A stretch of DNA of 64,000 nucleotides from Eledone cirrhosa (Eukaryota), in NCBI GenBank assembly GCA_964016885.1, contig OZ024747.1:806001-870000 (forward strand), given 5' to 3'. Under the pieces are notes generated by a model. The model ran no database searches, was not told the DNA's origin, and saw only the letters and a list, made by a program, of their open reading frames with translations. Each line of letters begins with the position of its first letter. Positions within the stretch are counted from its first letter, which is position 1. The position numbers and the translations under genes were made by a program. This document shows, one piece after another, positions 23,601 to 29,600 of the stretch.

Positions 23601-26600
23601 CTTGGGTTGCTGTTGTTGATGAAGTCCTTCAACAGGGGTAGTAGCAGAAGCTACAGTCATTGGTTTTTTGCTGTTGTTCAGGAACAATGGTAGAGGAAGA
23701 CATGATCTTCGGTTTTTGTTGTTGTTGTTCAGCAGCAATGGTAGAGGCAGACATACAGGCCAGGCACTCAAAGGACCAATTTGTTAGCTGGACCATTTCC
23801 CAGAGTCCATCCATCATAGAAGTATGGTGTCTCTTTTTCTGACCTGGGATCTTTCGAAAGTTTGTGGCACATTGAAGGTAAACAGAAACACATTTGTCAC
23901 ATTCGACCCATCGATTTCGGAAGGAGTTCTCTGGTTCTGTACATAGATGACAGACGTGATTTTCTGGGCAATGTTCTATTTTGGAACATCGCCCAGTTTT
24001 ATTGCACACTTCATCCATGGATGTCACAATAGTTATTTTGTCCTGTCTGCCCATCCGTATATTAGAACAAAATGTAAATGTAAACAAATAAATATGGTGC
24101 GTAAGTTTAGCACATTTGTTAACGAGATAAATGTTTGTCTATGTTTTGTTTTTGTATTTCTGTTTCTGTTTTCCTATGTATTATGTGTGTGTGTATGCAA
24201 AAAGATCTGCACACGAATATATATATATATATAATTAAAATGTGTATGTGGGTTAGAAGCGAAGTCACTGTTCAGAAAGATTTTACAAATGTACGTAAGA
24301 TTGGCCGGTATAGTGTCTCACACGAAATAGTGTGGTTTCTTTTCCCTTGTGAGTATATGCGTGTGGTATGTATCTGTATATAGATCTGTGTGTATATCGT
24401 TGTTTATGGATTTTGTGAAGTACTTACTGTGATCCCTAAGGGATGTAGTGATTTTTTTATTTTTTCCCCGTCCATGTCCATACGTGGTTTGTTGGCGAAA
24501 ATCAAATCAAATCAAATATACTTTGTTAAAATAATTCTATGTTGAAGCTGGTACTAGTTGTCAGGGAACAGTCAAAATATTTGTAATGTGTGTGTGAGTG
24601 AGTCTGTGTGTGTGTGTTTATGTGTTTGTCTGTATGTGTGCTTATGGAAGATCATTCTGCTAACAAAACACACTCATTAGTTCCAAATTCAATCAATCAA
24701 CAAAATCCCAGACTTCATCTACTTTCTGAGTTGGGTGGAACTTGTCAAATCAGACCAAGGAAGCAATGTTTCCATTGCTAATACTATCTACCTGTCACAA
24801 CTCCTGGCAGAAAGAGCAACATGAAATAAAGTGTCTTGCTGAAGGACATAACGCATTGCTCGGTCTAGGAATCAAACTCACAACCACATGATTGTGAATC
24901 CAATTCTCTAACCACTAAGCCACACACCTTCACTATATTTTACTTCAGCTTTATTATCAATAGATTGATTGGAACAATTAGTTGGTTTATGATAATTATT
25001 TCTTTTGAGTCTGCGACATTATCAGTAACTATGTGCTAAGTCACAGGATGTGAGGATAGAACAAGGACACACCAATTAATTAATAAACTAATCAGTTAAT
25101 TGATAATATAGTGAGTGATATATAATATATATAATTCAAATTAATAGATATATGTATATATAGAGAGAGGACGATATATCTTATGAGAAGACACAGTCAT
25201 CATCATCGATTAATGTCCATCTTCCATGCTAGCATGGGGTTAGACGGGTCCTATTTTGTGTCAGGTGACTGTGTCTCGCTCATATAGGAGTGTTTCTGGC
25301 TGGTTTTCTTCAGCTGGATGCCCTTCCTAACGCCAACCACATTTACAGTGTGTGCTGGGTGCTGTTTGCCGTGTCTTGTAAATATACAAAGCACATATAT
25401 CAAAGAAAAATATGTACTTTAGATGGAAAAAATCTAATTCCTAATAGCGCTATTTCATGATAGGAAGGAGCAGAACTTAAAATGAATCATCAATCACGAT
25501 AAGACCGATAGAAGAGAAAACGACTCTATTGGATACATTGTTTGGTTTATTGTATGAGGCAAGACTGTTGTGGGTAAAAAAAAACAGTAAAAAATCTTCC
25601 ACAAACACCAGATTCTTCGTTTTACCGTTCGTGCATAGTATATGAAGACTTTTAGATGTTTCTACTCATGAACAACCTACATGGGTAAAAAGTGATTCTC
25701 TTGTATTCAATTCTACAACTTTGAAATTCTGAGCCTGAACTTTATTTATAGTCGTAGCAAAACTGGTTCTAACAGGAAACTGAAGTCTTGAGAATTTGAA
25801 TGGCAGCTCGGTAGAGGAAGGGATATGAGGAATCTTGGGAATAAATGCATTTTCTCCTTGATGATTGCCTCCAAGGATAGTGACTTCTAGGAGATGGTTT
25901 ATCATCCTCCTGGCTGTAAAGTGAGTGCCATTGCATAGAAGTAGCGGGTCCACGTTTCTCAAAAGGAAGATGGAGGTTCCAATCTTTCATATTATATATA
26001 GATATGTATATAGATAATTACATATATATGTGTGTGTGTGTGTATATATATATAGACATACATATATATATAGATAGATATAGATAAATGTGTGTGTATA
26101 TATATATAGACATACATATATATATATATATATATAGTTAGATATAGATAATTACATATATATGTGAATATATATATATACACACACACACATATATATG
26201 TAATTATCTCTATATATATATGTATGTCTCTCTCTCTATATATATATATATATATGTGTGTGTGTGTATATATATATATATATATATATATACAAAGTGT
26301 TAAAACGATCAAATTTTAGTTTAGAACATTTATTAGCTGACGACAATTGTTTCTTCCAGAGGGAAGTCTGGAATCATCGGAGCATAAGGAATGTCGAAAA
26401 TGTGTAACTAGAATCCTAGTCATTTAGAACATTTAGGGTACAAGCAAAAAAATCACAAGCAATTTTTTTGCTTGTGATTTTTGCTTTTACTTATACCTAT
26501 TACACTTCCAACCAGTGCTGCCTGTAATTGTGTTATTTCAAGCGGAACATCTTTGTAACTCCTGAATCTCCACATAATGCCTTTGACACTAATAACAACT

Positions 26601-29600
26601 ATGTACCCTAAATGTTCTAAATGACTAGGTTCTAGTTACATGTGTTCGACATTCCTTATGCTCTGATGATTTCAGACTTCCCTCTGGAAGAAACGATTGT
26701 CAGCTAATAAATGTTCTAAACTAAAATTTGATCGTTTTAACACTTTGTATCTTGGCTCTGTAAAACACTTGAAAATTTGCATTGAGCCTTTTGTCATACC
26801 GGTCACCGGCTAGTACTTAGTACTACCCTACATATTTATAGTTATATCAAACATATATAAATATAAATATTACTATATATGAGAGAGAGAGAGAGACATA
26901 CATATATATATATAGATAATTACATATATATAGAGATAGATATAGATATATAATTATATATAAATGTGTGTATATATATATATAGACATACATAATATAT
27001 ATAGATAGATATAGATAATTATATATAAATGTGTGTGTGTATATATATATTTAGACATACATATATATATATAGATAGATATAGATAATTATATATAAAT
27101 GTGTGTGTATATATATATAGACATACATATGTATCATCATCATCATCATTTTACGTCCGCTTTTCCCTGCTTGCAAGGGTGGGACGGGTCTTATTCAGCA
27201 CAGCATCTCTCCACTCGTCACGGTCCCTCTTCATCTCCACCGTGAGCTTCAATGATCTGAGGTCTGTTCTCACCACCTCCGCCCATGTTTTTCGTGGTCT
27301 ACCTCTACCACGTCTTCCTTCAACTGGCAATTCCTGGCACTTCTTCACCCATCGGTCATCCTCCATGCGCATCACATGTCCATACCACCTCAGTCTCCTC
27401 TCCCGTACACTACATTCTATCCCTCTCAGACACAGTTTCTCTCTCAACACATTTATGCTGGGTCGTTCACGCACATTTACACTGCACATCCAACGGAGCA
27501 TGCTTGCCTCATTTCTCTCCAGTCGTCGCATATCCTCTGCAGTTGCTGCCCATGTCTCACTACCATGCAGCATCGCGCTCCTCACACAGGCATAATACAA
27601 CCGGCCTTTCGTACGTAGGGAGAAACCCTTCTTCATCAACAGAGGAAGCAGCTCCCTAAACTTCTTCCAACCCGTCCTTATTCTAGATACTATGGCCTCG
27701 GAACACCCTCCTCCCATGCTAATCTGATCTCCTAGGTACCGGAAGCTATCCACCACTTCTATAGCGCCCTCTTGCATTTGAAAAGTGTGTCTATCAGTGC
27801 GACTTCTACTGTCTAATTTCCCTGTACATCTACTGCATACATATTTCTCCCTACCTGTTAGTTTGCCTGCTATCCCGCTACATCTCTTGTGTACCCAGGA
27901 TCTGCATTGTGTGCATTTTATAGAATTTATGCCAGTTTCTTTTCTGCATATCGAACATGGCCATTTCCCTGACGGAATCAGAGTTTTGTCCTCTTTTCTA
28001 CTCATCAACACTTTTGTCTTAGCTAGATTCACTCTCAGTCCTCTTGCTTCCAACTGCTGTTTCCATAGCCAGAATTTATTCTCTAGCTCCTCTACTGATT
28101 CTGCTATAAGAACCAGATCGTCAGCATAGAGAAGTTCCCATGGACAGCCAGTCTTAAACTCCTCTGTTATGGCTTGGAGGACCGAACCCTGATGTACTCC
28201 TACTTGTATAATTCCTCACTAAACTCCATTCCTACCCTGACTTTACTGAGAGTACCTCTGTACAAAGTTTGCACTGTCCTCACAAGCCATTCCTCAACAC
28301 CTAGCTTCCTTAGGGACCACCAGATGACAGATCGGGGTACCCTATCAAAGGCCTTCTCTAGGTCAACAAAGGCTAAGTATAGTGGCTTATTCTTCTCTAA
28401 GAACCTCTCTTGCAATTGTCTCACCAAGAAGACGGCATCTGTTGTACTCTTCCCAGGCACAAAACCAAACTGCATCTCATCTAGTTTGACCCTTTCTCTA
28501 ATTAGTTGTGCTAAAATCCTTTCTGCCACTTTCATACCCCTATAATTGCTCCTCTCCAAAGCATCCCCTTTACCTTTGTAGCAATTTATGAGAATACTGC
28601 TGCACCAGTCTTTGGGTATGACACCACCATATATAGCCTGATTGATGATGCGTGCAACCAGTTTAGTGCCTACGTCCCCCTACGTATATGTATATATATA
28701 TACATAGATATATATATATAAATGTGTGTGTGTATATATATATATATATGTGTATATATATATATATATATATATATATATAGACATACATATATATAGA
28801 TAGATAGATAGATATAGATAATTATATATAAATGTGTGTGTGTGTGTATATATATATATATATATATATATATATATAGTTCAAGCATGTTCTACAACGT
28901 GAGGACCAAAAACGTGAGGTGTTCAGGATTGCCAGGCAATGTGTCAAGGAAAACCGTGATATTGTCGGGGAGAAGTGTGTACTTAACGATGATGGCATAC
29001 TTGCCATCACCGACGCTGATAAGAAGGTAGCTTGGAAGTGTCACTACGAAAGGCTTCTAAATGAGGAGAACAAATGGGAGAAAGACAGTCTCCCCCAGAT
29101 CGATCCAATAGAGGGACCAGCAGTGTTAGTTGAAGGTAGTATAATAAGTAAGGCAATCAAAGATATGAAGACGGGTAAGGCGGCTGGGCCTTCGGAAATA
29201 GTTGCTGAGATGCTGAAGGCATCTGGTTCGGTGGGACACACCATGGTCACCCGGATAGTTAACCAAGTCGTACAGAATGGGGTTGTTCCGAAGGAATGGC
29301 GTAGCAGCATCATCGTTAACTGCTATAAGGGAAAAGGAGATGCCCTAGATAGGAGTAACTATAGAGGCATTAAATTAATCGACCAGGTCATGAAGGTCAC
29401 GGAAAAAGTAATAGCGCAACTAATCAGAGAGAGAATTGATCTAGATGAAATGCAGTTCGGGTTTGTGTCAGGCAAAAGTACCACAGACGCTCTTTTCATT
29501 GTACGACAACTACAGGAGAAGTACCTAGCTAAAAGTAAACCCTTATACTTAGCTTTTGTCGACTTGGAGAAAGCCTTCGACAGAGTCCCCCGTTCCATTA

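Follow-up and report, generated by a model that had tools for sequence, protein, structure and literature searches.

An intron of NMNAT in Eledone cirrhosa holds a palindromic element with a hammerhead-like motif on each arm, and the motif on the sense strand of the gene has the core CCGAUGA in place of the textbook CUGAUGA. Was the sense-strand ribozyme disabled by selection against cleavage of the pre-mRNA, as the preliminary description of this DNA proposed, and what kind of element is it? We analyzed the locus in a window of 64,000 nucleotides (contig OZ024747.1, positions 806,001 to 870,000; coordinates below are those of the window) and compared it with its relatives in public sequencing runs. 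The element belongs to a highly repeated octopod family. It is quite probably a dead insertion in which two 5′-truncated 3′ ends of a Penelope-like element (PLE) meet head to head at a (TA)n run, and the hammerhead variant of the family, with C at core position 4 (C4), is predicted to be silent here.

The element and its host intron

The placement inside an NMNAT intron was confirmed, as exons at 36020-35951 and 20361-20273 on the minus strand join in frame across a GT..AG intron (Table 1). The match of exon 1 to Pfam CTP_transf_like (E 0.0024) falls short of the curated cut-off, and exon 2 alone has no match in Pfam. Within the window, the 152-nt and 148-nt arms are 93.4% alike over 152 columns (E 6e-61), and the RNA of the 459-nt element has a folding energy of -270 kcal/mol (z -29.8; 0 of 100 shuffles as good), so the inverted arms of about 150 bp are real. 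The nested hairpin is real as well (z -6.0; 0 of 200 shuffles as good) and is the true axis of the palindrome, with the left half lacking about 115 nt (26487-26601). The apparent spacer begins in a T-rich variable tract and is missing from the left arm. The extent first given for the element, 26291 to 26749, holds for its left end and its arm layout but not for its right end, where family sequence runs on to at least 26846. No ORF was found in the element, and position 26707, within the AATAAA, varies between A and T across the family.

The primary sequence is unrelated to that of the 52.8-kb element of the same window (score 41, with 87 of 500 shuffles as good; no blastn match), which makes this a second family and bears out the idea that several foldback lineages carry hammerheads. 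A comparable deletion, confined to one arm, lies near the center of the 52.8-kb element.

Table 1. Features of the element and its surroundings, in window coordinates.
Feature	Position	Strand	Remarks
(TA)n run, likely insertion target	26267..26290	.	From sequence; adjoins the left arm
Left arm (short, inverted), copy of 26602-26749	26291..26442	-	Lies on the NMNAT sense strand
Hammerhead-like motif, left arm	26339..26380	-	CCGAUGA core; perfect 7-bp helix II, palindromic ACAAUUGU
Small palindrome at head-to-head junction	26441..26486	.	26441-26462 is an inverted copy of 26465-26486
"Spacer", upstream part of the long copy	26465..26601	+	Repeated family sequence
Right arm, 3′ part of the long copy	26602..26749	+	From self-alignment
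Hammerhead-like motif, right arm	26660..26704	+	Core 26663-26669; cleavage predicted after C26701
AATAAA, possible poly(A) signal	26706..26711	+	From sequence, directly behind the right-arm motif; putative function
One-sided extension (tail)	26750..26846	+	At least 97 nt of family sequence, behind the right arm only
First coding intron of NMNAT (host), 15.6 kb	20362..35950	-	From exon joining

Hammerhead-like motifs and the family core

Each arm carries an outward-facing, type I minimal-hammerhead-like motif, as was first described, and descriptor matches on both strands confirm it. The descriptor, composed after the motif had been seen and accepting C or T at position 4, matched five times in the window, where 50 locally shuffled windows gave a mean of 0.08 (maximum 1), and it matched in 2 of 5000 shuffled arms. 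The right-arm motif (plus strand, 26663-26701) reads CUGAUGA, a 7-bp helix II, AC-GAUU-GU, C17, and helix I GCU/AGC. Its left-arm counterpart (minus strand, 26380-26339) has CCGAUGA and AC-AAUUGUC-GU, and its cleavage site holds a 3-nt duplication of GTC not seen among the listed family insertions. All three helices, GAAAC, GUC, and a palindromic helix III (self-duplex -6.4 kcal/mol) are in place. In place of the canonical core, CUGANGA...GAAA...UH with G10.1-C11.1, the family norm is CCGAUGA, with helix II closed by U-A or an extra A left; the core thus differs in three places from the consensus of PLE minimal hammerheads, namely C4, U-A rather than G-C closing helix II, and the extra A before GAAA. 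An Rfam scan of the whole window gave no match at the gathering score, and none of the 35 matches at 26200-26850 up to E 10 was to a hammerhead family. The miRNA-type matches at the element reflect microsatellite and hairpin shape and were dismissed.

Family data came from four of the ten listed public runs (X1, X4, X5, and X8; X2, X3, X6, X7, X9, and X10 were left out), with which the stretch 26441-26860 was compared at a likeness of 80. X8 is a RAD DNA run from a reduced-representation library, values from X1 are contig depth and not copy number, and organism A is a run label that possibly denotes a species other than that of the window. None of the runs listed was an RNA dataset carrying the element. 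X1 gave 1115 contigs matching the stretch, and X8 gave 2468 reads. Position 26664 is C, giving CCGAUGA, in 214 of 236 reads in X8, in 18,361 of 18,720 of the summed contig depth in X1 (98%), and in all contigs covering it in X4 and X5, from organisms B (three contigs) and C (one), which puts the C4 share of family sequence at 91-100% in all four runs. CCGAUGA is the family norm, and the CUGAUGA of the right arm, with T at 26664, is a rare and likely private change. CpG deamination is a candidate origin of that T, as of T26753, and fits the context. The sense-strand arm is closer to the family norm than the antisense arm, and the latter (the right arm) has drifted more by substitution; at two of the five arm differences in X8 (26641 and 26644) the left-arm letter was not the majority (42 and 46 of 119).

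These data bear directly on the proposal that CCGAUGA is a mutated core, selected on the NMNAT sense strand of an otherwise active CUGAUGA family, which we consider highly improbable. A letter shared by so much of the family in all four runs is no lesion, which refutes the proposal as far as C4 is concerned. Substitution drift is greatest on the antisense arm, and folding predictions have the motif buried in the head-to-head layout whichever strand is transcribed. The sense-strand GTC duplication, which breaks the register of helix I or of the short helix III, would fit such selection, as would the depletion of tandem retrozymes from Xenopus introns reported in bioRxiv 10.64898/2026.07.22.740005 and the lowered in vitro cleavage of U4C given in PMC3088659, but the duplication is a single case and one locus cannot show a strand bias. 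Nothing in the locus points to selection against cutting NMNAT RNA, because CCGAUGA is the normal state of the whole repeat family.

Imposing the hammerhead fold on the whole element costs 62.5 kcal/mol on the minus strand and 75.1 kcal/mol on the plus strand, and an isolated arm prefers an alternative fold by about 7 kcal/mol. The left-arm motif is predicted not to cleave the NMNAT pre-mRNA, since transcription reaches the complementary arm before it (a penalty of 62 kcal/mol).

A sister variant, represented by 93 reads of X8 and one contig of X4 with a loose end at 26685, retains CCGAUGA and helix I; its helix II differs but can still pair, an argument for maintenance of the hammerhead fold. 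This covariation, the joint presence of three helices, GAAAC, a palindromic helix III, and GUC, and the fact that C4 is admitted by published descriptors and found in nature (PMC13481778; PMC3088659) all weigh against the motif being a decayed or never-active look-alike that acts as a protein-binding or termination signal at the 3′ end of an element of whatever class. We hold that view possible, though doubtful, since it would accommodate the three consensus departures and the missing Rfam hammerhead match, and since PLEs insert in vitro even without hammerhead activity (PMC11167929) and some PLE clades are described as having no canonical hammerheads (PMC8557442).

Ends, tail, and inverted joints

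Contigs spanning 26648-26772 in X1 and 26657-26772 in X4 cross the arm end, and the family letter at 26753 is found in 53 contigs of X1 and one of X4. Copies with (AT)n loose ends at 26750 account for 26 contigs in X1 and one in X4. The tail is optional and one-sided; it measures at least 97 nt, and its far end lies near the edge of the compared stretch. Behind 26807, the X8 reads share a uniform sequence that is absent from the window.

Depth in X1 peaks over the motif and arm end at up to 112,599, stays at or below 28,379 in the upstream part, and is about 19,000-26,000 in the tail; the upstream/arm ratio is about 0.25, a 3′-biased abundance with two kinds of 3′ end. Loose ends at 26485 (nine contigs of X1) and 26462 (X5) show that other copies extend further 5′. 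With contig depth as a rough guide, the 3′ bias and these upstream loose ends match the 5′ truncation expected of PLEs, and their AT-rich or (TA)n target is seen in the left flank of the window's copy and in the (AT)n ends of others.

Over the window's own center, 26441-26454, X1 depth is 14 against more than 20,000 in the body, so this head-to-head center is rare or locus-specific. Other inverted joints link 26463 with 26645 (one contig of X4), 26485 with 26645 (three reads of X8), and 26461 with 26645 with 19 letters between (17 reads from two starts, X8), and three more occur in single X1 contigs. A 26441/26485 joint was left out of the strand changes, as variation in the T-rich tract can mimic one through the small hairpin of the reference. 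An inverted head-to-head pair with a junction palindrome, typical of PLEs, is thus present in the window, and other inverted joints are present in the runs. The recurrence of breakpoint 26645 in two organisms could mean that some palindromic units were copied whole.

Such recurrence raises the question of whether both arms move as one unit, as a non-autonomous, PLE-derived palindromic mini-element (a true foldback family). The short arm begins at 26645 in joints of both organisms (X8 and X4), the T-rich tract at 26461-26485 holds the start of the long copy both there and in the window, and the deletion in the 52.8-kb element is comparable. We nevertheless judge it unlikely, since the window's center is nearly missing from X1, its short arm begins at 26602 and not at 26645, and at least five different inverted joints are among those listed; the shared 26645 could also stem from a single ancestral locus or from copying that tends to stop where helix I has its outer edge.

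The arm ends read TA/CAAAG...CTTTG/TA in the window, which at face value fits a TA-duplicating DNA transposon. A Tc1/mariner-like MITE whose long terminal inverted repeats incidentally hold a hammerhead-like motif would account for these ends, for the 150-bp arms, and for the many copies ending in (TA)n. It is a very unlikely origin, as contigs from two organisms carry family sequence beyond the right "repeat", the arms are covered about four times as deeply as the interior and not twice, centers vary, and helix II covaries in the sister variant. TA does stand at both arm ends, though the right arm does not bound the element, and the mariner-like remnant near 17.5-18.3 kb gave a single 20-nt match at chance level (E 0.07). 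The one-sided tail, (TA)n ends, and variable centers agree with the Penelope-like rather than MITE-like behavior first suspected.

Comparison with Penelope-like elements and meaning

From its insertion layout, the family is likely to belong to the PLEs. The layout is already described for them and is not a new kind (PMC3846280, PMC8557442, PMC4209133). PLEs are reported with head-to-head inverted pLTRs, junction palindromes, and an optional one-arm tail (PMC3846280), with an inverted 5′-truncated copy, a tail, and a (TA)n bias (PMC8557442), and the tail has been explained by internal initiation (PMC11167929). Minimal hammerhead pairs lie 100-700 bp apart on opposite strands in Schistosoma, and a PLE in Cotesia bracovirus has, at the 5′ end where it is truncated, a further motif on the other strand (PMC4209133). 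EN+ PLE insertions (Arkhipova et al. 2013, PMC3846280; Craig et al. 2021, PMC8557442) share with the octopod element the head-to-head inverted 5′-truncated copies with a junction palindrome, the one-arm extension, the (TA)n target (Neptune and Naiad clades), and the lack of a clear target-site duplication in microsatellites. Unlike them, the octopod element has no remaining ORF, and its tail of at least 97 nt exceeds the 30-40 nt of described PLEs, a point against a PLE origin. No RT or GIY-YIG gene was found linked to the family, whose listed contigs are all 270 nt or shorter, and four 10-12-nt family motifs, short as they are, had no match in the supplement of Craig et al. with two Octopus Naiads (PMC8557442).

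A hammerhead near the 3′ end is a PLE trait that the family has in variant form. Like the pseudo-LTR hammerheads of metazoan PLEs (Cervera and De la Pena 2014, PMC4209133), the motif is of type I, with a long helix II, a short helix I, a 2-bp helix III with a palindromic loop, a variable base after A9, and AU-rich flanks. In contrast, C at position 4 occurs in none of the 56 motifs of their Fig. S3 (the descriptor favored U), and the U-A closing pair and extra A before GAAA also set the octopod family apart. Animal non-LTR retrozymes (PMC7229834; bioRxiv 10.64898/2026.07.22.740005) are likewise small, non-coding, repeated, and likely PLE-dependent, with a type I hammerhead, but they are direct tandem repeats with canonical motifs, whereas in the octopod element the pair is inverted and the motif a minimal variant; none of the eight joints listed was the unit-length tandem (go-back) joint of a retrozyme. 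A viroid hammerhead cited in PMC3088659 also has C at core position 4, as a rare state with much reduced in vitro activity, whereas C4 is the majority state under three organism labels here. Scans for the motif gave 0 and 1 matches in metagenome contigs and 0 in viral contigs; the one match (L001) was rejected as chance, as it lies in protein-coding microbial DNA, lacks helix II, and has only 17-18 nt in common. The repeat annotation of Octopus vulgaris in PMC13282606 reports Penelope-like families and leaves ribozymes unmentioned. A search by title found no report on this octopod hammerhead family; Luense et al. 2017 (PLE hammerhead variants) and Arkhipova et al. 2017 (Terminons) may already describe C4 cores.

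We propose that a PLE protein acting in trans would have nicked the (TA)n tract, and that RNA would have been reverse-transcribed from internal start sites behind the ribozyme, either at the arm end or further out, giving the tail. Copying may have stopped early, and fold-back or a second priming would then have produced the inverted partner and left the joint with its small palindrome; a jump between templates, or a deletion at a later time, may account for the absence of the 115 nt from the left half. Both arms would have decayed after insertion, the left by the 3-nt duplication and the right by several substitutions, including C>T at 26664, a chance return to the textbook core. In the NMNAT pre-mRNA, the complement of the left motif would be made first, giving a long hairpin and not a ribozyme.

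As an insertion, the element would be ordinary PLE debris and uninformative on selection at NMNAT. A textbook-looking core can be the mutant and an odd core the family norm, so strand arguments from a single locus need family data. A repeated family with a fixed C4 offers a ready test of whether PLE hammerheads are kept for cleavage or for their fold alone. We put forward, tentatively and with more doubt than belief, that this high-copy octopod PLE-like family has a triply non-canonical core fixed across species and subfamilies, with a covarying helix II and insertion breakpoints that cluster on the outer side of helix I, and that this core still cleaves as a dimer or with the help of protein and would be a new natural hammerhead core variant missed by CUGANGA searches. 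If instead a core so far from the consensus is conserved yet inactive, the fold would serve another role in the cycle of the element.

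Architecture of the element and its surroundings

The divergent-hammerhead layout and nested hairpin ascribed to this palindrome in the preliminary description were both borne out: the arms at 26291-26442 and 26602-26749 are 93.4% alike, the whole element folds far better than its shuffles, each arm carries one motif, and the hairpin is the axis of the palindrome. Our descriptor matched five places in the window (the element's two motifs, two at 52.8 kb and one at 36.5 kb), whereas 50 shuffled windows averaged 0.08 matches each, a rough null since the descriptor was composed after the motif had been seen. 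An Rfam search did not detect the hammerhead-like motif, and no open frame was found in the element in any frame. The left half goes from the axis directly into its arm, without ~115 nt present in the right half, so the element consists of a long plus-strand copy, beginning at 26465, and a short inverted one. The sequence behind the right arm is non-microsatellite.

Features of the element and of the surrounding window
Feature	Position	Strand	Remarks
Type I hammerhead-like motif	26663-26701	+	CUGAUGA; descriptor match, reads outward
Type I hammerhead-like motif	26380-26339	-	CCGAUGA; descriptor match, reads outward
Small hairpin	26441-26486		Both halves share the first 20-22 nt outward from ~26463
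(TA)n run	26267-26292		Adjoins left end of element
NMNAT exons	near 36.0, 20.3, 13.8, 8.1 and 5.6 kb	-	
Single third hammerhead-like motif	36529-36579	+	CUGAUGA; helix II closed by G-C; ~510 bp upstream of NMNAT start codon
52.8-kb palindrome	52760-53045		CUGAUGA on both strands, AUA cleavage triplet; 19 nt absent from left arm near centre (arm-specific gap); 14-nt extra piece behind right motif
FANCC-like gene	43875-45809	+	644-codon uninterrupted ORF, apparently intronless; Pfam Fanconi_C match, E 1e-9
ORFs	8610-10695, 27151-30784, 21227-22887, 32663-35759, 17518-18257		Several within NMNAT introns; presumably remnants of several kinds of LINE reverse transcriptase and of a mariner-like transposase

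The preliminary description saw no obvious sequence relation between the element and the 52.8-kb palindrome; on sequence comparison they are unrelated, with 87 of 500 shuffles scoring equally well or better. A relation does exist between the 52.8-kb motifs and the one at 36.5 kb (score 97, reached by 0/500 shuffles). The reading frame of NMNAT runs on from exon 1 into exon 2 across a 15.6-kb GT..AG intron that contains the element. The host is an octopod, because the best named match of the FANCC-like neighbour is Octopus bimaculoides (62% identity; the protein search gave 2 matches among 4498 candidates).

The core letter and the NMNAT pre-mRNA

Four of the ten listed public runs were compared with 26441-26860 at 80% likeness, and the variants, loose ends and pieces reported here are those listed. 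The family is highly repeated in organism A, for which run X1 gave 1115 contigs and the RAD DNA run X8 gave 2468 reads; organisms B (run X4) and C (run X5) gave 10 and 2 contigs. At 26664, core position 4, 214/236 X8 reads carry C (34 start points). C also accounts for 18,361 of the 18,720 summed depth of 57 X1 contigs, and for all depth in X4 (3 contigs) and X5 (1 contig). As C prevails in all four runs, CCGAUGA is the family norm and CUGAUGA of the right arm is the exception, which refutes the earlier proposal that CCGAUGA is a mutated sense-strand core under selection.

At the five listed arm-to-arm substitutions, the X1 majority letter is always that of the left arm (76-99%); in X8 this holds at three (91%, 95% and 53%) and not at two (35% and 39%). 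The left arm has a single clear lesion: GTC is duplicated at the cleavage site, a change absent from the nine listed family insertions/deletions. In a sister variant, seen in 93 X8 reads and one X4 contig, helix I and CCGAUGA are retained and helix II is different yet still pairs. The base after A9 is variable: U, with A in 82/225 X8 reads and C in the sister variant.

Minimal hammerheads of Penelope-like elements (PLEs) are described in PMC4209133 as cleaving poorly and needing a partner; the element has one motif per strand. Its head-to-head order means that the complement is transcribed before the motif, and imposing the hammerhead fold carries a penalty of 62.5 kcal/mol for the NMNAT sense strand and 75.1 for the opposite one, versus ~7 kcal/mol in an isolated arm. 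For these reasons the NMNAT pre-mRNA is predicted not to be cleaved, irrespective of the core, so that selection would have little to remove. In the context of coleoid RNA editing, the intronic hairpin of 150 bp might serve as a substrate for A-to-I editing.

Ends of copies and likeness to Penelope-like elements

Depth in X1 is highest where the motif and the end of the arm lie (up to 112,599), reaches at most 28,379 upstream and ~19,000-26,000 over 26749-26832, and has dropped at 26847, possibly in part because the compared stretch ends near there. At 26750, (AT)n forms the loose ends of at least 26 X1 contigs and at least one X4 contig, and contigs from both organisms pass 26750 into the one-sided tail, so copies have two kinds of 3′ end. 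The centre that the window itself carries is rare (depth 14). Other head-to-head joints exist among those listed. In three of them (X8, X4) the short arm begins at 26645, ~18 nt ahead of the core and on the outer edge of extended helix I, a possible preferred stop. Loose ends also occur at 26648 (X1, X5), near this start, and other copies reach further 5′ through a T-rich tract. A copy skipping the 5′ half of the core is common to organisms A and B, as X1 and X4 have an identical loose end of 30 letters (26624-26683).

In one X8 subfamily the sequence to the left of 26723-26725 is mixed (601 reads, agreement 0.34-0.36), and behind 26807 it continues uniformly (1124 reads, agreement 0.98). The former boundary lies 22 nt past the predicted cleavage site instead of coinciding with it and may mark the 5′ beginning of the parent unit, although a few loci may be over-represented through RAD sampling. 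The X8 sequence behind 26807 differs from the window and can form a hairpin.

By analogy, these traits match published endonuclease-bearing PLEs. Two papers describe head-to-head inverted pseudo-LTRs of which one arm bears a tail, with junction palindromes interpreted as self-priming (PMC3846280), and an inverted 5′-truncated copy at the 5′ end with a (TA)n bias (PMC8557442); the element likewise has head-to-head copies, a junction palindrome and a (TA)n flank. Other studies trace opposite-strand pairs of minimal hammerheads to truncated PLEs (PMC4209133), attribute the PLE tail to internal initiation at two sites, and find the hammerhead dispensable for PLE insertion in vitro (both PMC11167929). 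Following the steps proposed for PLEs, nicking, internal priming and then fold-back would form the insertion. The defining PLE ORF is not among the traits seen in the element, and its long tail and TA-bounded arm ends fit PLEs most poorly.

The layout itself is already known. The unusual part is the family's core, which has C4, an additional A in front of GAAA, and helix II closed by a U-A pair. C4 occurs in 0/56 motifs aligned in Fig. S3 of PMC4209133, where the descriptor favoured U; a recent hammerhead descriptor uses CYGANGA (PMC13481778). U4C is known from a viroid variant of reduced activity (PMC3088659).
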